Shown here: positions 1,973 to 53,674 of the stretch, in pieces
Layout of the letters: every line of letters starts with the position of its first letter
How positions within the stretch are numbered: the stretch's first letter is position 1
DNA from: Ignavibacteria bacterium UBA7675
Lineage (GTDB): Bacteria > Bacteroidota > Ignavibacteria > Kapaibacteriales > UB7675
Direction: 5' to 3'
Length of the DNA: 64,000 bases
NCBI GenBank assembly: GCA_002483085.1
Contig: DLHF01000046.1
Location: forward strand, 5,313 to 69,312
Position numbers and translations under genes: made by a program
Notes under the pieces: model-generated
Told to the model about the DNA's origin: nothing
The model's input: only the letters and a program-made list of their open reading frames with translations
The model's database searches: none

Positions 1973-2333
1973 TCGCTTCGGTCTTTGGCCGGAGCCGCCC
2001 TGCGGGACGGCTCTACGCTCGGCCTTCGCACCGCGCAGCACACCCGCCTCGTGGGGTTCATCCTCCATCGCAAAAAAAAGAAACTCGGCTTTGCGTACTC
2101 CAAACGCAATACTGTCTTCCCCCTGCCGAAGCACACCCGACCACAATACCACTACGCTCCCTTCTGGAGGCGGCTGTCAAGAGAATCGAATCAGCTTTTA
2201 CATACCGGATTTCTGTGGTTTTGCAGGTAAGATAGCGGAGAAAGCACGCACGCCACGAAGCGGATGTGCGACCGGCGACAGCGACGTATCGTAAAGCCGC
2301 CTATATAGGCGGCTCGCCGCAACGACGCCCGTG
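1973..2333. repeat. composite copy of intergenic repeat family (module B forward ... module A reverse, ~180-bp internal spacer)
   Basis: GTCGCTTCGGTC...CCTTCGCACCGCGCAGCACACCCGCCTCGTGG at 1973-2065. GCGGATGTGCGACCGGCGACAGCGAC...GACGCCCGTGC at 2258-2333. A 14-bp direct duplication TGAACAGACGTTTT x2 abuts the left end. Confidence 0.6.
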
Positions 2334-2400
2334 CAACTAAACGTAGGAATAGAATAACAGTGCAAATCTGCAATATCTGGCTGCTCTGCGCTCCTTATGC

Positions 2401-3465
2401 TCAATCAGTCTTCAGCGTGAACGAGATCGTCGTCCCCTTGCCTTGCTCGCTTTTGAGATGCACTGTAGATTTATGCGCTTCGAGTATGTGCTTTACAATA
2501 GCGAGACCCAGCCCCGTGCCGCCCACCGAACGCGAGCGGTTTTTATCTACGCGGTAGAAGCGCTCAAAAATGCGTTTGTGGTGTTCGGGCGGGATACCAA
2601 TACCGTTGTCATGTATCTGCACCAGCACTTCTGTTTCGCCCGGTTTCAGCCACACATCTACTTTTCCGCCTTCCACATTATACTTAATAGCATTCTCGAT
2701 GAGGTTTGTAAGAACCTGAGCAAGCCTGTCGCGGTCGCCATAGACTTCGATATCCTCGTCGTCTTGCGGTTCATGGACAGTAATACTCACCTTCTTGGTC
2801 TGCGCCTGTGCTTCGAGATTGCGGGCGATTTCGCGCACGAGCGGAAGCAAAATAAAGTAGCGGAAGCTGAAGCGCATCTCGCCGGATTCAATACGCGAAA
2901 TATTGATAAGATCGGTAAGCAGCGAATTGAGGCGAACGGTATTGGCGTGCGCCTTTTCTACGAACTGACGGCTTACTTCCTGATCCTCTAGCGCACCGTC
3001 GAGCAGCGTTTCTAAAAATCCCTGAATAGAGAAAATAGGTGTGCGAAGCTCGTGCGATACATTAGCGAGAAACTCGCTGCGAACGCGTTCTAACCGCTGC
3101 ATGCCCTCGATGTCCTTGTTCGACTTGTCGGCGAGTTTATTTACAGCGGCATAAGCGCGCTGCGTCTCGGCGAAATCGGTGTTTTCATCGGCAGTAATAC
3201 GCGAGTGTGTAGAGCCTTCGCTAATAGCACGCGACACAACGGCAATGCGCGACACCGAGGCCGCAATACGGTCGGAAGTGCGAGCAGAAAACCAGAATAC
3301 CACTCCGAGGCTAGGAGCCAGAAGCAGGAGTGCTGCTATAATGCCAACCGTCGCAGAAGAATGAAAAAGCGCCGGAACTAACAGCGCAATTCCGGCGAAA
3401 ACAACGAATGCGAAGATAAAAATCAGGGAAAAATTTCGCGCCTGATACGCACGCAGAGAGATCAA
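2401..3465 (-). CDS. two-component sensor histidine kinase (2 TM, HisKA + HATPase_c; PhoR-like)
   Basis: H-box LANVSHELRTPIFSIQGF, N-box LIENAIKYN, G-boxes DNGIGIP and GGTGLGLAIV. The listed ORF runs to 3615 but overlaps the upstream regulator gene. TTG at 3465 (..MISLRAYQARNFSLIFIF, immediately before TM1) is my preferred start and is uncertain. Confidence 0.75.
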   Translation of the reverse strand: MISLRAYQARNFSLIFIFAFVVFAGIALLVPALFHSSATVGIIAALLLLAPSLGVVFWFSARTSDRIAASVSRIAVVSRAISEGSTHSRITADENTDFAETQRAYAAVNKLADKSNKDIEGMQRLERVRSEFLANVSHELRTPIFSIQGFLETLLDGALEDQEVSRQFVEKAHANTVRLNSLLTDLINISRIESGEMRFSFRYFILLPLVREIARNLEAQAQTKKVSITVHEPQDDEDIEVYGDRDRLAQVLTNLIENAIKYNVEGGKVDVWLKPGETEVLVQIHDNGIGIPPEHHKRIFERFYRVDKNRSRSVGGTGLGLAIVKHILEAHKSTVHLKSEQGKGTTISFTLKTD

Positions 3466-3488
3466 CGTCTGCCAGCCTTTATTGGATG

Positions 3489-4196
3489 TTAATTGAATCG
3501 GTAGCCAACACCTTTTACCGTGTCGATGTAATGTCCGTACTTGCCAAGTTTGTCGCGGATTTTTGAAATATGAACATCCACAGTGCGGTCGATTACGTGA
3601 ATGCTTTCGCCCCATATACGGCGCAGCAGCACTTCGCGGTCGAATACTTTGCCCCTGTTGGCAGCAAGAAACGCCAGCAGTTCAAATTCTTTTTTCGGGA
3701 AAAATGTCTCGACATTGTCGATCCGTACAGTGTAGTTCTGCCGGTTGATTTCCAGTGCTTCGACCTGTAAGATCTCGGGCGCTTTTATCGTTTCGGTCTT
3801 TATTTTTTGAGCAGCTCTCCGCAGATGGCTTTTTACACGCGCTACAAGCAGCCGTGGACTGATCGGCTTCTGGATGTAGTCGTCGGCTCCCAGCTCAAGC
3901 CCGAGAATCTCGTCAATCTCACCCGATTTCGCCGTGAGAAATATCACTGGCGTTGCTGCTGTGTCGGGGTCTGCTCGCAAAGTACGGCATACCTCGAATC
4001 CGTCCATCTCCGGCATCATAATGTCGAGCACAATAGCATCGGGACGGTATTGCCGTGTTTTGGCTACCCCCTGTGCACCGTCTGCAGCGGTAAGCACATT
4101 AAACCCTTCTTTTTTCAAGTTGTATCCTATCAGCTCGACAATATCTTCTTCATCATCGACAACCAGGATGGTTTTATTGTACATTTCATCAGGCAT
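3489..4196 (-). CDS. OmpR/PhoB-family response regulator (REC + winged-helix)
   Basis: Internal ATG giving MPDEMYNKTILVVDDEEDI. Residues upstream in the listed ORF lie in a duplicated non-coding segment. REC motifs DD..D..K. C-terminal trans_reg_C (VHISKIRDKL...GVGYRF). Confidence 0.85.
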   Translation of the reverse strand: MPDEMYNKTILVVDDEEDIVELIGYNLKKEGFNVLTAADGAQGVAKTRQYRPDAIVLDIMMPEMDGFEVCRTLRADPDTAATPVIFLTAKSGEIDEILGLELGADDYIQKPISPRLLVARVKSHLRRAAQKIKTETIKAPEILQVEALEINRQNYTVRIDNVETFFPKKEFELLAFLAANRGKVFDREVLLRRIWGESIHVIDRTVDVHISKIRDKLGKYGHYIDTVKGVGYRFN

Positions 4197-4268
4197 AGTA
4201 GTACGACATATAGTTGTACAAAAATACGAGTTACTGGTGCTACATTTCAGTGGAAGCCGAGTTAAAAT

Positions 4269-4504
4269 AGGTAAAATTTTGGTAATACGCGAACCGGCAG
4301 ATACGCCACAACAGCCCATCAGACGAATATAAGCTGTTTTGGTACAGAATTACGGTAATGGCGAGGTCAGGCAGAGACAAGAGACTGGTAGGTAAAATTT
4401 TGGTAATACACGAACCGGTAGGTACGCCACAACAGCCCATCAGACGAATATGAGCTGTTTTGGTACAGAATTGCAGCCGCGACGAGGTCAGGCAGAGACA
4501 AGAG
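4269..4504. repeat. two tandem 115-bp direct repeats (~93% identical) in the regulator promoter/leader region
   Basis: Unit 1 4269-4383 and unit 2 4390-4504 (GGTAAAATTTTGGTAATACRCGAACCGG...GGTCAGGCAGAGACAAGAG). Unit 2 overlaps the last codons of the 4488-5618 gene. Confidence 0.85.
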
Positions 4505-5618
4505 GCAGGCGCACTGTAACAGTGGTTCCGGTATTAAGCGCACTTTCTATGGCAAAATGCCCGCTGAATATCTGGGTGAGGAGCTTTACGAGGATAAGTC
4601 CCAAGCCGGTTCCCTGCTGCTCGTGTAGATTGCGATGAAACTGGCTGTAAGCGCCGATGCTCTTAATCTGCCCGGCATCCATGCCGCGCCCTCTGTCGAT
4701 CACTCTGATTTCGTACAAGTCGCTGCGTACAGCCGATTGCACAAGAATAGAGGTGCCCGCAACTGAGAACTTGAGGGCATTGTCGATAAGCTCGAAAACT
4801 ACCTTGTTGAAGCTCTCGTAACTCATTCCTACAGCGGCGTTGTCGAGCTGAAGCTCAATATCAGCAGCTCGGCCTGCATTGCGCGCATTCAGCGCTACAA
4901 GGTCGTGGATTACTTCTGCGGCATCATTCACTACTTCCCGGCGCAGCCGTATCAGCTCGTCGGGCTGGGTCAGCACAGCCTGAATCTGGGTGTAAAACAA
5001 AAAATTCTCGGCGATCTTTTGCAGCCGCCTTCCCGACTGGCTTACCGAAGTGGTAAGGTCGCACAATTCCTCGCGCGCAATCGCGATGTTCAGGTCGGAG
5101 TCCGATAGCATGCCGTGCAGGATATCTGTTCCGCCGAGAATGCCGTTGAGAGCTGTGCGGAATTCGTGTGGCAAAGCACTGGAAATACTTTCGCGCAGAT
5201 GGTCGAACATTTCTTCGTAGCGCTGCGCTATCCGGTCCTTCTTCATCATGTGGTTCCGCACACGAGCTACTAGCAGCCTCGGGCTGACAGGTTTCTGGAT
5301 GTAATCGTCGGCGCCGAGTTCGAGCCCCCGAATCTCGTCCGATTCAAGTGCACACGCTGTCAGAAAAATAATAGGTAACGACGAAGTGACGGGGTCCTGG
5401 CGTAGGACACGGCATACTTCAAACCCGTTGAGCTCTGGCATCATGATATCGAGTATGACGGCATCGGGCTGATGCTGCCGGGCAAGCTCTATAGCCTGTA
5501 CTCCGTCGAAAGCCGATAAGACATGGTATCCTTCTTTTTTGAGATTATAACTTATTAACTGCACTATGTCCTCTTCGTCATCTACAACGAGGACAGTCTG
5601 GTTAAGCATCATACACAC
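4488..5618 (-). CDS. hybrid response-regulator receiver / histidine-kinase-like protein (N-terminal REC, C-terminal HisKA-like + HATPase)
   Basis: REC about 70% identical to the REC of the 3489-4196 regulator (VLVVDDEEDIVQLISYNLKKEGY...LELGADDYIQKPVSPRLLVARV). H-box-like ALPHEFRTALNGILG. G-box GTGLGL. Confidence 0.75.
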   Translation of the reverse strand: MCMMLNQTVLVVDDEEDIVQLISYNLKKEGYHVLSAFDGVQAIELARQHQPDAVILDIMMPELNGFEVCRVLRQDPVTSSLPIIFLTACALESDEIRGLELGADDYIQKPVSPRLLVARVRNHMMKKDRIAQRYEEMFDHLRESISSALPHEFRTALNGILGGTDILHGMLSDSDLNIAIAREELCDLTTSVSQSGRRLQKIAENFLFYTQIQAVLTQPDELIRLRREVVNDAAEVIHDLVALNARNAGRAADIELQLDNAAVGMSYESFNKVVFELIDNALKFSVAGTSILVQSAVRSDLYEIRVIDRGRGMDAGQIKSIGAYSQFHRNLHEQQGTGLGLILVKLLTQIFSGHFAIESALNTGTTVTVRLPLVSA

Positions 5619-5792
5619 GTTCCGTTTTTACCACCGTTCCGCAAAATTAGAAATAGCGGCAGGTTTACCTGTGTAAATTCTCGGTAACATACCCCTCATG
5701 TGTGGAAATACTCAACACGAAACACATCTACTACTTGTGCGCGGCAAAAAACCGCATCGGCAAGGCTATAATTTCTCTCTACCTTGCTCTCT

Positions 5793-6079
5793 GGGGCGTT
5801 CTGCCTCTGCTCCTGCGTTCCCTCTCCGCACCGCGCAGCACGCCCGCCGCGTGGCTATTCACCCCCCAATCGCATGCAAAATGCCCCTCGTCGGGCATGG
5901 ACAGGTTCTCCTTCTTGCGTGGTAGAGATTCTGTGCATATCCTTTCCGGCGGCAGTCCTTTGGCCAGCAACCAACCGGCATTATCGTAAGCACGATGCGC
6001 GGACGAGGTCGACCGGCAACAGCGACCATACGGTAGAGCCGTCCCGCCAGGGCGACTCCGCTGCAACGACGCCCGTGCC
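5793..6079. repeat. composite repeat-family copy (module B forward + partial module A reverse)
   Basis: CTCTCCGCACCGCGCAGCACGCCCGCCGCGTGG at 5822-5858. GCAACGACGCCCGTGCC at 6063-6079. Confidence 0.55.
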
Positions 6080-6180
6080 ACACATCGCCCCACAACAGAA
6101 ACGGCAAAAAGCGTTGTGTTCTGCAACATTTGCAGCACACTGCGTTTGCAGAGGTCGAAAAACAGGGGTAACTTGCAGAT

Positions 6181-6864
6181 ATGGTACAAAAATTACAGAC
6201 AGCGGTGGCCGAGGACTACCTTCGAACCATCTACAAATTGCAGCAGAACGAAGGCGATGTAACAACAAGCAGGCTGGCGTCTGCGATGAACGTCTCATCA
6301 GCTTCTGCTTCGGATATGCTCAAAAAGCTCGCTTATGATAAATTGGTGCGCTATCGGCCTTATTACGGCGCATCGCTTACCGATCAAGGGCTGGCGATTG
6401 CCTTGGCCGTAACACGCAAACACAGGCTCTGGGAAATGTTTTTGGTGGAAACTCTCGGCTTCAGTTGGGATGAAGTTCACGCTATTGCTGATAAATTAGA
6501 ACACTACACGCCTGCGCTGTTAGAAAAGCGCATCGACGAAAAATTGGGCTTTCCGACTGTGGACCCACACGGCGACCCAATCCCCCGCTCCGATGGCGAA
6601 ATCCACCATTCTAATGTCGCTCTGCTGGCCGACCTGGCGCTAAATACTCCCGCTGTGGTAAGCCGTGTCTCCGACGACAATCCCGAAATACTTCAGTATC
6701 TGGCTAAAATCGGTATGAAGCTCGGGCAGCGTATCGTTGTGCGCGAAAGTATTCCTTTCGACAATACGCTGCACATCGATCTGGAGGGCAAGGAGCTCTT
6801 CCTGAGCAACAAGCTCGCAAACAGCGTGTTCGTGTCGGCTGACGCTGTGGAAACTCCCTCCTAG
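6181..6864 (+). CDS. DtxR/MntR-family metal-dependent transcriptional regulator with C-terminal FeoA/SH3-like domain
   Basis: N-terminal HTH (TSRLASAMNVSSASASDMLKKL), dimerisation/metal-binding region (RKHRLWEMFLVETLGFSWDEVHAIADKLEH) and a C-terminal FeoA-like tail. Confidence 0.85.
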   Translation: MVQKLQTAVAEDYLRTIYKLQQNEGDVTTSRLASAMNVSSASASDMLKKLAYDKLVRYRPYYGASLTDQGLAIALAVTRKHRLWEMFLVETLGFSWDEVHAIADKLEHYTPALLEKRIDEKLGFPTVDPHGDPIPRSDGEIHHSNVALLADLALNTPAVVSRVSDDNPEILQYLAKIGMKLGQRIVVRESIPFDNTLHIDLEGKELFLSNKLANSVFVSADAVETPS

Positions 6865-16744: not shown

Positions 16745-17866
16745 TCAATGAGCCACAGGAAGTACCACCGTAACTGTAGTCTGTACTCCTACTTCGCTGT
16801 CAATAGTAAATTGTCCATCGTGTAGCTCGGCAAGCATTTTAGAAATGACTAAGCCAAGCCCGACGCCCTGCTGTTCGTACACATCCCGGCGGAACTGATT
16901 GTAAGCACCTATGCTTTCAATCTGGTCGTGGGTCATCCCTCTACCACCGTCGTGGATGGAAATAACATACGAGCCATTTTCCAGCGCACAACGCACACGT
17001 ACAGGCGTGCCTGCTTCCGAGAACTTAAAGGCATTGCTCAACAGCTCCTGTGCTATTTTGTACAGGTTCTCCGACGACATTCGCAGCTTTGCTTCGCAGA
17101 TATCGAGCGACAGATCGCTTTCACGCCCATTATCGCGCGAGGCAATAGTAGCTATATCGGCAATAATCTCGCTGGCGTTTTCCACGGTGAAGCGCTTGAG
17201 CTCTTCCACCGCTTCGGGCTTGCCCGCAATCGAAGTAATCTGCGTGTACACCAGGAAGTTCTCGGTCATCTTGTGCAAACGACGGCCAGAATCCTTGATC
17301 GCTACAGCCATTTCCAACAGTTCATCAGCATCTATGACATAGCTAGTATTCGACATTTGCGACATTTTCGCCATATCGATGATAATGTCAGAATAGCCGA
17401 GAATACCGTTGAGAGCCGTGCGGAACTCATGCGGCAAAGCATAGGAAATATTGCCGCGCAGCACTTCGAGCTTTTCCTCGTAGTGCTGCGCCACTTTCTC
17501 CTGCTTGGCCAGTTGCGTTGTAACAGCCGCGATAAGTTCAGTAGCTGTAAACGGTTTTGTAAGGTAGTCGTCTGCCCCGAGTTCCATCCCGCGCCGCATA
17601 TCAGCTTTTTCGGCCTTCGCAGTAAGGAAGATAAACGGCACCGTACCGAGCTCCTTGTTTTTGCGTAGTTCGCCCAGCACACCAAATCCATCCATGCGCG
17701 GCATCGAAACATCGCACAAGATCAAATCCGGCTTGCAGCTAGCAATAGCCTCAAGCCCTGCTACGCCGTCCTCGGCCACGCATGTGTCATATCCTTCAAA
17801 CCGAAGGGTTGTTGCAATGGTTTCGCTGATAAAATCAGTGTCTTCGATAATCAGTATCGTTTTCAT
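16745..17866 (-). CDS. hybrid response-regulator receiver / histidine-kinase-like protein (paralogue of 4488-5618)
   Basis: Start at internal ATG (MKTILIIEDTD). The listed ORF extends to 18127. REC domain, then ALPHEFRTALNGILG H-box-like motif and HATPase (GVGLGLVISK). Confidence 0.75.
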   Translation of the reverse strand: MKTILIIEDTDFISETIATTLRFEGYDTCVAEDGVAGLEAIASCKPDLILCDVSMPRMDGFGVLGELRKNKELGTVPFIFLTAKAEKADMRRGMELGADDYLTKPFTATELIAAVTTQLAKQEKVAQHYEEKLEVLRGNISYALPHEFRTALNGILGYSDIIIDMAKMSQMSNTSYVIDADELLEMAVAIKDSGRRLHKMTENFLVYTQITSIAGKPEAVEELKRFTVENASEIIADIATIASRDNGRESDLSLDICEAKLRMSSENLYKIAQELLSNAFKFSEAGTPVRVRCALENGSYVISIHDGGRGMTHDQIESIGAYNQFRRDVYEQQGVGLGLVISKMLAELHDGQFTIDSEVGVQTTVTVVLPVAH

Positions 17867-22436: not shown

Positions 22437-25400
22437 ATGAACATTGTACGCTCGCGCTGCCTTCTACTGATACTTTTGTACTGTCTTCTGGCCGCTGCAT
22501 CTCTTCCGGCTGTAGCTCAGCCCGACACGCGCGGGCAGGAGTTTTACCTCACCTTTCCACCTAATTTTCACAATAACCTCGACAATCCACAGGCCAGCCT
22601 TATCGACAGCCTGTATATTTTTATTGCAGCAACCGAACCAACAACAGGCCAGATTGCCTACCGAGACATCGACAACAACGCATTTGTCGTCAATTATTCG
22701 ATTACTGATCCCTCGCAGGTGTACACATTCGGCATACCGTGGATAGACTTTGAACTGCGTGGATTCAACGACAGCGGTACGCTTATCAGCTACCATCAAA
22801 GCGCGAGTATTGCTCCACAGTCCTTTCGCATTACCAGCAGCAAAGACGTAGCAGTCTACGCCCTGAATCGCGCCGAAACAACCAGCGATGCCATGCTCGT
22901 GCTGCCCACAGATGTGCTTGGTACAAAGTACCGCGTCATGGCGTACAATTCGGATTTTCGCGGCAATGAGGACATGGACACGCCTTCGCAACTGGCCGTT
23001 GTAGCCACGCGCGATAATACGGTGCTCACGATTCAGCCCACCGTGCCTGTGATGGGCTCCACACTGGGCACGATCACAGTACGCCTGAACGCAGGTAATT
23101 CCTACTTGCTACAGGCTGCTCCCGGCGGACAATTGCCCGACCTGACCGGCACACTTGTAGAGTCGACTCAACCAGTAGCTGTATTCGGCGGCCACCAGCG
23201 CACACGCCTGCCAGTGCAAGACCCCTCGATGAACTCTCGCGATTACCTCATCGAGCAGATTCCCCCGATAGATGTGTGGGGCAAAAGCTATATCCTCACG
23301 CCCTTTCCCCCACCCGATAACCAGCAGGAAGAAGTCGTCGATATCGTGCGTGTGCTCGCTGCCAACGACAATACACAAGTGTTCATCGCAGACGAGCTCA
23401 AAGCCACGCTTGCCGCAGGTGAAGTATATGAAGAACTGCTACAAACAGCGTCGTTGCTCACCGCTTCGGAGAATGTGCTTGTAGCACAGTACAAGCAGAC
23501 CTCGCGGGATGGCGGCAACCTGCGCCTCGCCGACCCGTTTATGATCATTGTCCCGCCTCGAAAGCAGTTCCTTCAGTCGTACCTGTGTATCAATGCACAA
23601 TCCTACGCAGATAAGCGCATTTATTTCCGGCAGTACATGACCCTGATATGCCACAAGAATTATGTTGCCTCGATGACAATCGACGGCGCGCAAGTCAACG
23701 CTGCCCTGTTCAAAGATATTCCCGGCACGTGCTACACATACGCTTGGGTTCCTACAAGCGACGGCTCGCATCATGTAGAAGGGCAAAATCCATTTGGCCT
23801 CTATGTGTATGGCTACGGCACATTGGATTCCTACGGCTATACCGGCGGAATGGCTTTCCACAAAGAAGATGAAGACTTCGTCCATGTTTCGTCGGATACC
23901 GTGCTCTGCACTGGCGACAGCCTACAGCTTTCCATCACAGGAGGCACTTCTTATTCGTGGTCGCCTGCCAACGGGCTGAGCTGTACCGACTGTGCAAACC
24001 CAGTAGCGAAGCCCCAAACAGCTACAACCTATAACGTGTCGTTCACCGATGCCTTTGGCTGCGAACACAAGCGCAGTATTGCGGTCGATGTACAGCCCTA
24101 TCCAAAGCCGGTGGTAAGCAGCGATACAACAATGTGCAGTGGGCAATCGGTTGTGCTCAAAGCTTCGGGTGGGCGCTTCTATCAGTGGTCGCCATCCAGT
24201 GGGCTGAGCTGCACCGATTGTGCATCGCCTACAGCAAACCCGACTAAAACAACGACATACACCGTGGTAATAAGCAACGGCGGTACGTGCTTTGCTACAG
24301 ACAGCGTCACGGTTGCCGTCCGCTTTGCTCCGATTGATGCTCTGCCATCCGATACACTGATGTGCACGAACGATTCCATAGCCTTTCATCTGCCGGCAGA
24401 AGGCTTTTCTTACAAGTGGACACCGGCTACAGGGCTGAGCTGTACCGATTGCCCTAATCCTATAGCTCGACCGACCAAAACGACAAAATACATTGTAGTA
24501 ATGACCAACGACGCTGGCTGCAAAGTCGCCAAAGCTGTGACGGTGACTGTGGTAGCTCTGCCGATTGTCAATATTACACGCGACCTTACGCTGTGCAGCA
24601 ACGATCCGCCGGTAAGGCTGCTCGCTAAAGGCGGTAATTATTACCAGTGGTCGCCCGCCGATGGGCTGAGCTGTACCGACTGCGCGAGCCCGCTCGCGAA
24701 ACCGTCGGCAACAACAACCTACACTGTACATATTTCTATTACCAATACCTGTGCGGCAACAACAACTGTCACTATTACTGTACCGCCCACACCGGTGCCG
24801 GATATTTCTACCGATACAACAGTGTGCCTGAATACTGCTGTGCAACTGCACGCTTCGGGCGGAACAACATACGCGTGGTCGCCTGCCGATGGACTGAGCT
24901 GCACCACCTGCCCCGATCCGCTCGCGCTTCCGCAGAAAAGCACCTTGTATCGCGTAGCAATAGCCAACGACGAAGGCTGCTCTGTAGAAGACAGCGTGCA
25001 AGTTACGGTGATTAGTCCTGCCGACATATCCGTGAGCCCCGATGTGGAAGTATGCCGGGGTTCTTCGGCTTCGCTGAGCGCTAGCGGTGGAAGCGCCTAC
25101 CAGTGGTCGCCCGCCGATGGGCTGAGCTGTACCGATTGCCCGGCTCCTGAGGCTACGCCGAACGAAACAACGATCTACACCGTTGTCATTACTGGCTCCG
25201 GCGGCTGTATGGTAGAGCGCTCCGTAGCTGTTACCGTCCTTCCTGCCCCTCAGCTTGTCGTCGGCCCGGATGCTTCTGTGTGCCGTGGACAAAGCACAGT
25301 TCTCCAGGCATCAGGAGGCGTAGATTATGAGTGGTGGCCTGCGACCAGCCTAAGCTGTAGTAATTGCTCCAACCCTACAGCTACTCCCACATCAACAACA

Positions 25401-26510: not shown

Positions 26511-26599
26511 TGGGAAAACCAGCGTCGGTTTTGCGGGACACAATCATGCCGGGTATGTATTGGAGCTACCTACAGTTGATGACAAAAATAAAAAATGGT

Positions 26600-26732
26600 G
26601 GCACGGGCGTCGCTCGGGCGCTCGGCTCGTCGCTGTCACCGGTCGCAAAACCGCTGCGGTGGAGGTCGGCCAGCCACGCAACGGCAATGCTGCGCGGTGC
26701 GGAGACCCAAAGCAAGAGCGAAGACGGCGGCG
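26600..26732. repeat. compact full-length repeat element (module A forward + module B reverse, ~133 bp)
   Basis: GGCACGGGCGTCGCTCGGGCGCTCGGCTCGTCGCTGTCACCGGTCGCAAAACCGCTGCGGTGG...CCACGCAACGGCAATGCTGCGCGGTGCGGAGACCCAAAGCAAGAGCGAAGACGGCGGCGC. Coordinates may be off by 1 here (see rejected note). Confidence 0.7.
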
Positions 26733-26782
26733 CTCTTATTGCAAAAGCTAAAAAGCACGATGCTCAGCAGCACCAGGCTCTA

Positions 26783-30493: not shown

Positions 30494-30774
30494 GATTGAT
30501 TAGAGTTTGAGAAGGTATGATTGGTTTGCATAGCGGCCTCCGGTGTAACGATTATTATTGCACTGACAGTTGATTAGGAGCTCAGAACGTTGTGGTTGGT
30601 TTCCACAAAGCCTTCATTGCGATTAATTGACGTTATCAGTTAGTTGAGAAACTCAGAAGGTATGGTTGGTTCCCATAGTCTTCACTGCGATGATTGTAAG
30701 TTATCAGTTAGTTAAAAGTTCAGAAGGTAATGGCTGGTTTCCATACAATCCTTCACTGCGATGATTAACATTAG
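30494..30774. repeat. array of four degenerate ~69-73-bp tandem direct repeats upstream of the 30873 gene
   Basis: Units about 30494-30566, 30567-30636, 30637-30705, 30706-30774. The last two are cagttagttRARARYtcagaaggtaWggYtggttYccatA..cttcactgcgatgatt. Identity decays towards the 5' units. Confidence 0.75.
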
Positions 30775-42353: not shown

Positions 42354-42420
42354 CACATTGTCCATCCTACAACGTCTTGATACGCATTCGCTCATGAGTC
42401 TTGCTGCTGCTATAGATTGT

Positions 42421-53450: not shown

Positions 53451-53611
53451 TTATATGTACTCCCCTTATATGTTCCGTCAGCGAACATTTTTCTACAGGC
53501 AGATCATTCCTGCCTAAAAACCTTTTATGCACCTAAAAAACTTCTTATGCACCTGCTTTCCCCTTGCATTTACTGCAAAGAAGTCGAAAGAGCATACTGG
53601 ATACAAGGATG

Positions 53612-53674
53612 AATGAGTATCTGGCGGCTTTCAGTGAGTATCTGGCGGCTTTCAGTGAGTATCTGGCGGCTTCT
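53612..53674. repeat. three perfect/near-perfect tandem copies of a 21-bp unit
   Basis: AATGAGTATCTGGCGGCTTTC / AGTGAGTATCTGGCGGCTTTC / AGTGAGTATCTGGCGGCTTCT. Confidence 0.85.

Follow-up and report, generated by a model that had tools for sequence, protein, structure and literature searches.

A two-component locus of an Ignavibacteria bacterium with a probable old receiver swap and a younger tandem duplication of a putative operator

Here, we describe a two-component locus on the minus strand of a 64,000-nucleotide (nt) stretch of DNA (the window) from Ignavibacteria bacterium UBA7675 (GenBank assembly GCA_002483085.1, contig DLHF01000046.1, positions 5,313 to 69,312). In this locus, a hybrid gene that joins a receiver (REC) domain to a histidine kinase core precedes an OmpR/PhoB-type response regulator gene and its kinase gene, and the spacer between hybrid and regulator contains a tandem repeat. 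While an earlier note on this DNA had explained the repeat and the likeness of the two receivers by one segmental duplication, we consider it likely that the locus reflects two independent events, an old receiver swap and a young duplication of the spacer, and that a conserved box within the duplicated spacer is the regulator's own putative operator.

Organization of the locus

Along the minus strand, the hybrid REC-kinase gene (5609→4488) is followed by a 291-nt spacer, the regulator gene (4196→3489) and a classical kinase gene (3465→2401) that begins 23 nt past the end of the regulator. The genes and gene parts are as follows.

4488..5609 (-): REC-HisKA-HATPase hybrid gene, 373 aa, ATG at 5609, alternative GTG start at 5618 (open reading frame and Pfam)
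5247..5597 (-): REC domain of the hybrid, assigned by identity and tree to the neighbouring regulator's REC as its source
4500..5183 (-): kinase core of the hybrid, DHp/HisKA plus HATPase (Pfam coordinates and kinase-core tree)
5133..5177 (-): H-box ALPHEFRTALNGILG with the phospho-accepting His, read from the sequence; identical motif in the 16745-17866 paralogue
3489..4196 (-): OmpR/PhoB-family response regulator, 235 aa (Pfam Response_reg, 2e-30, and Trans_reg_C, 1e-23)
2401..3465 (-): classical membrane histidine kinase, 354 aa (Pfam HisKA and HATPase_c; gene call from contig L001), sharing an operon with the regulator gene
16745..17866 (-): second REC-kinase hybrid, a family-typical paralogue that served as comparison protein

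The hybrid protein has the same sequence as P0001, the 373-aa protein encoded on the public Logan contig L001, and matches Response_reg (7e-30), HATPase_c (2e-18, 67.6 bits) and, weakly, HisKA (1e-6, 29 bits versus a cut-off of 26.9). Its core has the His, N, G1 and G2 boxes of HisKA kinases in the translation (PHEFRT, ELIDNALKFS, DRGRGM and GTGLGL), and its receiver, aligned to that of the regulator, keeps the acidic pair (VVDDEED), the phospho-acceptor Asp (LDIMMP), the Thr (FLTA) and the Lys (IQKP). The regulator has the N-terminal receiver and C-terminal winged-helix Trans_reg_C domain of the OmpR/PhoB family. A divergently oriented MntR/DtxR-like gene (6181-6864) lies upstream of the hybrid and is a conserved neighbour of it in relatives. 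Three REC domains in total are present in the 64-kb window.

In its layout, a REC plus winged-helix regulator followed by a HisKA kinase, the pair resembles OmpR/PhoB operons, and its top NCBIfam models are PhoB and PhoR/PnpS. The regulator's best model is PhoB of the Bacteroidetes type (NF053854, 240.8 bits versus a cut-off of 270), with TIGR02154 at 220.9 versus 296.2, and the best models of the classical kinase, PnpS (295.9 versus 400) and phoR_proteo (270.3 versus 334.2), are likewise sub-threshold. Since regulator and kinase score below every equivalog cut-off, we do not call the system Pho. Neither in the window nor in two Ignavibacteria contexts, and speaking of local context only, do pst, phoU or other pho genes flank the locus, so that a role in phosphate metabolism is not established.

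For comparison, we retrieved the DNA around hybrid orthologues (61-85% identical) on short public metagenomic contigs. The order MntR-like gene, hybrid, regulator and kinase recurs in five sequence-distinct loci (L004, L005, L006, L008 and L009); L007 duplicates L006, and L002 and L003 end 76 nt past the hybrid gene. When public genome contigs were scanned for the hybrid protein, the best full-length match reached 41% and no close orthologue emerged; the same scan yielded the Ignavibacteria regulator loci used below.

Origin of the hybrid's receiver and kinase core

The RECs of hybrid and regulator are identical at 84 of 123 residues (68%), close to the ~70% given by the earlier note. In a neighbour-joining tree (100 bootstraps), the hybrid RECs and the regulator RECs of the loci each formed a clade (100 and 100), the two clades joined at 99, and the pair was nested (100) among full-length OmpR-type regulators of Ignavibacteria that are 55-59% identical to the regulator. 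The REC of the 16745-17866 paralogue, 36-43% identical to both the hybrid set and the regulator set, fell into a separate hybrid-family clade (100) together with the RECs of 24 other members. The REC phylogeny that the earlier note had called for hence has the hybrid and regulator receivers as sisters (99%) and the third receiver of the window in a clade apart. Closest relatives were read from these trees and not from a REC-only protein search, which returned only short proteins and fragments and missed the full-length orthologues.

The kinase core has other relatives. More than 110 proteins with the same three Pfam domains match the hybrid over 97-99% of its length, and among 112 members of this REC-HisKA-HATPase family, identity to the hybrid averages 39% (maximum 47%) for the REC and 38% (maximum 45%) for the kinase core. 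The hybrid and the 16745-17866 paralogue are 43% identical over 370 aa, that is, over their full length, and both contain ALPHEFRTALNGILG, the common H-box motif that had been spotted earlier. In a kinase-core tree, the cores of the hybrids lie inside the REC-kinase hybrid family and far from the classical kinase of the locus, while the hybrid REC does not belong to the family's own REC lineage: it groups with OmpR-type regulators (99-100%), outside the family REC clade (100%). Along the protein, the switch from regulator-like to family-like sequence occurs around aa 121-128 (...SPRLLVARV(R/K).H, then K.(D/E)(R/K)(I/V)AQ.YEE...). Because its REC and its kinase core have different closest relatives, the hybrid is, as judged from these trees, a chimera in which the receiver of the neighbouring regulator sits on the core of a different, widespread kinase family. 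Domains and trees thus agree with the earlier description of a REC-kinase hybrid, with a divergent HisKA/HATPase module, beside a classical regulator-kinase pair.

Over a 120-aa stretch in six loci, RECs are 78-95% identical among hybrids and 83-95% among regulators, and the identity between hybrid and regulator RECs is flat at 64-71% (62-70% in nucleotides), whether they come from the same locus or from different loci. Third codon positions of hybrid and regulator RECs are near saturation, with 43.5% identity within loci and 39.7% between them. By these measures, the copying of the receiver is old, predates all sampled relatives and has no connection with the 121-bp repeat described below.

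Ongoing gene conversion between the adjacent genes could in principle have kept the receivers alike, as might be read from an 80-nt stretch (3835-3914 versus 5260-5339) that is 81% identical in DNA and from third positions of REC nt 241-330, which are 48-57% identical within a locus versus 37-47% between loci. However, the identity of hybrid and regulator is equal within and between loci, the two sets form clean reciprocal clades (100% each), the 80-nt stretch codes for a part of the REC that hardly varies among the 12 proteins, and the slight within-locus excess fits shared codon usage, so that we give conversion hardly any credence.

The divergence between hybrid and regulator RECs is concentrated in alpha-2 and alpha-3, while alpha-1 is invariant at 13 of 16 positions over all hybrid and regulator RECs, and beta5 and the beginning of alpha5 hardly vary (with approximate boundaries of secondary structure, taken from PhoB-type receivers).

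A tandem repeat between hybrid and regulator

Tandem Repeats Finder (TRF) reported a repeat at 4268-4504 (period 121, 2.0 copies, 90% matches, no indels, score 397), and a repeat self-search of the window paired 4268-4388 with 4389-4509 at 89% identity.

4389..4509 (-): distal tandem unit, 121 nt; the hybrid's last 22 nt including the stop, then spacer, then box
4268..4388 (-): proximal tandem unit, 121 nt; adjoins the regulator promoter and is homologous to the single-copy spacer of L004

The tandem repeat of the earlier note therefore stands, but the period is 121 bp and not 115, and across the 115-bp units the identity is 104/115 (90.4%) and not ~93%. The units differ at 13 of 121 positions, seven of which fall into a 10-nt patch (unit columns 28-37). 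As also seen earlier, the distal unit overlaps the end of the hybrid gene: it takes in the stop codon (4488-4490) and the final 19 coding nt, and the proximal unit holds a copy of that gene end. The repeat is thus positioned 3' of the hybrid gene and not 5' of the hybrid REC. Pattern searches for parts of the unit, with a chance expectation of 0, found them nowhere else in the 64 kb, nor does the unit belong to the dispersed repeat families of the window; the occurrence at unrelated loci, which would have marked it as a dispersed element, was not seen within the window. As expected of a local tandem duplication, the unit aligns to the single spacer plus gene 3' end of L004, and we conclude from these alignments that the 121-bp repeat is a local duplication and not a mobile element.

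Short-read assemblies are prone to errors at tandem repeats, which might make the repeat an artefact of assembly. Against this, the 13 differences make the units distinguishable, unlike a collapsed or expanded identical repeat, and the Logan contig L001 corresponds to window positions 2257-6048 without mismatches, including both units, so that the entire 3.8 kb are matched exactly; an artefact is extremely improbable. An exact-protein look-up of the regulator, aimed at strains with a single unit, returned L001 only.

The relatives provide the age of the duplication. Their hybrid-to-regulator gaps measure 168 nt (L004), 147 nt (L005), 190 nt (L006), 298 nt (L008) and 469 nt (L009), as compared to 291 nt in the window, and none of these five spacers contains an internal direct repeat. 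The L004, L005 and L006 spacers align as one copy of the unit. The hybrid protein of L004 is 85% identical, and this locus has a single homologous stretch of 118 nt, gene 3' end included. Either unit matches that stretch at 68-73%, as compared to 89% between the two units. Since relatives with the same hybrid, regulator and kinase genes have single-copy or repeat-free spacers, the tandem duplication is, on this comparison, young and specific to the lineage of the window, and postdates its split from the L004 lineage. The hybrid-regulator spacer appears to be an indel hotspot: its length ranges from 147 to 469 nt among relatives, and the long versions (L008:2476-2773 and L009:2024-2492) lack internal repeats.

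A further possibility is that the units encode or form a functional RNA, be it a tandem riboswitch or leader, a small RNA or a terminator of the hybrid gene. A 10-bp hairpin (CCAAAACAGC...GCUGUUGUGG) does appear in the folds of both units; yet the fold energies are no better than those of shuffled sequences (z = -0.26 and -1.27), L004, L005 and L006 do not preserve the hairpin sequence, and the hairpin has no U-tract, with a terminator scan finding nothing there. Rfam gave no match at the repeat at the gathering threshold, nor at E≤1 in 4100-6250, and a sigma-70 promoter and terminator scan remained at chance level. We hold a functional RNA to be very improbable.

An ATG in each unit opens a reading frame starting with MGCCGV (3489-4319 and 4240-4440 of the window, both on the minus strand), and the proximal one is in frame with the regulator; the resulting extension of the regulator is probably spurious. 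A 276-aa version of the regulator starting at this proximal ATG (4319, inside the proximal unit) was rejected, as the extension would contain a conserved -7-like element; besides, the L001 and L004 genes are called from MPDEMYNK, other relatives have equivalent starts, and L004 has no ATG at that site.

A conserved direct-repeat box upstream of regulator and hybrid

Each repeat unit contains a copy of a conserved box, and a related box precedes the hybrid gene. The boxes and the promoter-like elements near them are listed below.

4271..4285 (-): native (proximal) box TTACCAAAATTTTAC, upstream of the regulator; conserved in six lineages
4392..4406 (-): extra (distal) box TTACCAAAATTTTAC; 21.9 bits with a position weight matrix
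5667..5691 (-): box upstream of the hybrid, with core TTACCGAGAATTTAC at 5673-5687; 34 bits with the weight matrix
5642..5649 (-): TAATTTTG, -7-like element (TAnnTTTG type) of the hybrid gene; TAA(T/C)TTTG in seven lineages
4219..4226 (-): TATTTTTG, -7-like element of the regulator-kinase operon, outside the repeat; CTCGTAT(T/G)TTTG in six lineages

We take the TAnnTTTG elements to match the -7 promoter consensus of Bacteroidota. An alignment of the regulator-upstream regions of six lineages has two conserved islands, GT(A/G)TTA(C/T)CA(A/G)(A/G)ATTTTACATA and, 43 nt downstream of it, CTCGTAT(T/G)TTTG. The hybrid-upstream regions of seven lineages have ATGTTAC(C/G)GA..A.TT(T/A)ACA, with invariant or nearly invariant halves ATGTTAC and TT(T/A)ACA, followed by TAA(T/C)TTTG. 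Both boxes are the same direct repeat with an 11-bp period, TTAC(C)-N6/7-TTAC, which reads TTACC-N6-TTAC in each unit. Across the 64 kb, the pattern TTACS-N5-TTWAC matches three times (4271-4285, 4392-4406 and 5673-5687) versus 0.30 expected, and with a weight matrix built from 13 orthologous sites, among them the window's own, only these three sites exceed 20 bits (next best 11.5).

The box extends beyond the loci that have the hybrid. Seventeen of 34 orthologous regulator genes in Ignavibacteria have TT(T/A)A(C/T)-N6-TT(T/A)AC within 90 nt upstream, compared to 0.5% of shuffles, and most of the remaining genes show near variants of the box. In the two Ignavibacteria contexts examined, no hybrid gene lies beside the regulator-kinase pair. 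Across ~35 Ignavibacteria loci (L034, L057 and about 33 others), the gene order is LptF/G permease, Gfo/Idh/MocA oxidoreductase, regulator, kinase and PurQ-like amidotransferase, and the direct-repeat box comes directly after the oxidoreductase stop codon; this neighbourhood suggests a housekeeping, not a phosphate-specific, role of the pair. A scan of public metagenome contigs with the box pattern TRTTAYCARRATTTTACMTA gave 102 matches, and tblastn found no relative of hybrid, regulator or kinase beside any of them; these matches are chance hits.

OmpR/PhoB-family regulators bind tandem units of 11-nt direct repeats whose number varies by promoter, including upstream of phoRP (PMC2275107). The present boxes have this format, with half-sites at an 11-bp period that stand out by phylogenetic footprinting upstream of the genes. 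Because the 11-bp direct repeat matches the site format of the family and precedes both the hybrid and the Ignavibacteria regulator genes, we infer that the box is a putative operator of the regulator itself, which would control the regulator-kinase operon and the hybrid gene. An 11-bp direct repeat upstream of the regulator's own gene is also what Pho boxes and PhoP direct repeat unit (DRu) arrays look like, while the half-site, (T)TTAC, departs from the consensus in E. coli and Streptomyces, and the extra box is 121 bp away, not adjacent as in such operators. The suggestion of the earlier note that the duplicated leader may carry duplicated regulator-binding sites is compatible with these findings, each unit having a conserved candidate box.

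The box may instead belong to the promoter or be bound by a different factor, for instance by the MntR/DtxR-like repressor encoded at 6181-6864, in which case its duplication would have no bearing on autoregulation. In favour of this, the operator reading of the box derives from sequence, the Ignavibacteria box is ~32-58 nt from the start codon, where an element of the -33/-35 type is expected, and the MntR-like gene is conserved next to the hybrid. On the other hand, sites of metalloregulators are usually palindromic, and in Ignavibacteria the box goes along with the regulator gene, without an MntR-like neighbour in the contexts examined. Besides, the distance from the box to the -7-like element ranges from ~10 to ~43 nt, too wide a range for a fixed core-promoter element, and the 11-bp direct repeat is, again, the site format of the OmpR/PhoB family (PMC2275107). 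Taken together, we consider a box without a link to the regulator unlikely, though far from negligible.

At the ends of L002 (L002:3452-3527) and L003, which represent an 85%-identical relative, the hybrid gene is followed only by a degenerate box and a -7-like region. The spacer of this lineage may be rearranged or far shorter, or the assembly may have broken at a repeat.

Two probable events of different age

In our preferred reading, an old and a young event would have shaped the locus. The old one would postdate the split from Ignavibacteria-type lineages and predate the divergence of the seven sampled relatives: a copy of the regulator's receiver would have been placed before the core of a member of the ~370-aa REC-HisKA-HATPase family, replacing the native receiver with a junction near residue 125. 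The young one is the 121-bp tandem duplication of the hybrid's last 22 nt and ~99 nt of spacer, which added a second box 121 bp upstream and left the native box, the -7-like element and the hybrid coding sequence intact. This second box would be an extra putative site for a regulator dimer at an autoregulated promoter, with the hybrid being co-regulated. The effect of the duplication is most likely small or neutral, and at most an altered gain of autoregulation.

The earlier note had proposed that leader and REC were duplicated as one segment, followed by fusion, so that the 121-bp repeat would be a remnant of the leader. That the REC was copied from the regulator and joined to another kinase fits our data, and two further observations speak for the proposal as a whole: the hybrid and regulator RECs are mutually closest relatives, and a regulator-like box lies upstream of the hybrid, which could mean that REC and promoter were copied together in the old event. 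What fails is the attribution of the repeat to the same event. Single-copy relatives already have the hybrid, in that the aligned spacers of L004, L005 and L006 lack the repeat and those of L008 and L009 lack any internal repeat, and the divergences differ, with 11% between the units as opposed to near synonymous saturation between the REC copies; for these reasons, we do not regard the repeat and the REC paralogy as one event. In addition, the repeat lies downstream of the hybrid and holds the 3' end of that gene rather than the 5' end of its REC, and the two upstream regions do not align beyond the short box and the -7-like element. The probability that we assign to a single event is accordingly very small. 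The promoter may nonetheless have been co-duplicated in the old event, but the box upstream of the hybrid is distinct from the tandem repeat.

Alpha-1 is the main kinase-docking surface of receivers. Since the hybrid REC keeps the phospho-acceptor residues, alpha-1 and beta5/alpha5, the classical kinase probably feeds both receivers; it would phosphorylate the regulator, with transcriptional output, and the receiver of the hybrid, with control of the second kinase. As the copied receiver retains alpha-1 and the alpha4-beta5-alpha5 face, one might go further and envisage a branched pathway, in which one membrane kinase phosphorylates a transcription factor as well as the receiver of another, soluble kinase, or in which the two receivers heterodimerise. 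We put this forward tentatively and regard it as rather doubtful. If true, it would couple the transcriptional response to a second phosphorylation cascade; a single type of operator would serve all three genes, and its doubling in this lineage would adjust the gain of the feedback.

Several points weigh against the two-event reading with the box as the regulator's operator. The grouping of the hybrid core with the subclade of the 16745-17866 paralogue has a bootstrap of 37.5%, too low to single out a donor of the core, and the trees are neighbour-joining trees only. The relatives are on short contigs, those of L002 and L003 not covering the spacer, and L001 may share source data with the window, which makes its independence as a confirmation uncertain. 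The data do not demonstrate selection on the extra box, because a clean stretch such as the 21 box-bearing nt that are identical in both units is expected in ~8% of cases by chance, given 13 differences in 121 positions (not significant). Finally, the spacing between box and -7-like element differs (~22 nt at the hybrid, ~43 nt at the regulator and ~10 nt in Ignavibacteria), and the box may belong to the promoter proper or serve a different DNA-binding factor.

Relation to known systems

The components of the locus are all of known kinds: a regulator-kinase operon with a putative direct-repeat operator, a REC-kinase family member, domain shuffling and a small tandem duplication. With the ~370-aa REC-HisKA-HATPase proteins of Cyanobacteria, Chloroflexota and Bacteroidota, the hybrid shares domain order and length (35-45% identity over 97-99%), the difference being that its REC comes from the neighbouring OmpR-type regulator instead of the family REC clade. 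Members are annotated as "response regulator" or "hybrid sensor histidine kinase/response regulator", and we know of no characterised member of this family.

Domain shuffling and lineage-specific duplication of two-component systems are the subject of comparative-genomics surveys (such as PMC4603909 and PMC4618731). Like domain-shuffled proteins of this kind, the hybrid has a receiver recombined with a transmitter of another lineage, here beside the parent gene. In the present case, donor and recipient family can be named, the junction is placed within ~8 residues, and the alpha-1 surface of the parent is kept. What is specific to this locus is that donor, recipient family, junction and relative ages can all be stated, and it thereby represents a datable natural case of domain replacement and of a change in operator copy number, two routine routes of two-component evolution. 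With single- and double-copy spacers in close relatives, it could become a test case for receiver specificity after a swap and for operator copy number in autoregulation. No new kind of system is revealed, and the practical impact is modest, the lineage being uncultured.

Other repeats and features in the window

Between the hybrid promoter and the MntR-like gene, window positions 5700-6150 harbour GC-rich intergenic repeats that belong to a dispersed family. This family has at least two modules, with copies in both orientations and the cores CTCCGCACCGCGCAGCAC..CCGC.GCGTGG and GTGGCACGGGCGTC...GTCGCTGTCACCGGTCGCAC. Both modules lie in this spacer, which is 563 nt long here versus ~170-185 nt in all relatives, and therefore an element of ~390 nt was inserted in the lineage of the window. 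Related copies are found near 2013, 10717, 16068, 22113, 26595-26733, 34675 and 36575, and further ones near 42416, 44932, 46603, 46757, 52794, 58532 and 62240. Contig L001 breaks at both ends inside such dispersed repeats.

Three other repeat regions were noted. At 23927-25183, six copies of a unit of ~228-231 nt are 63-73% identical over a 111-nt core and probably reflect a protein domain that recurs within one large gene. A tandem array at 30581-30762 has a period of 68, 2.6 copies, 75% matches and 9% indels (TRF), and 53614-53672 is a perfect 21-nt tandem repeat (TGAGTATCTGGCGGCTTTCAG, 2.8 copies) that adjoins a 19-20-nt repeat at 53513-53554. A tRNA gene lies at 1822-1903 on the plus strand (Rfam RF00005, 49.1 bits), and one of the dispersed repeats (~1940-2150) comes directly after it.

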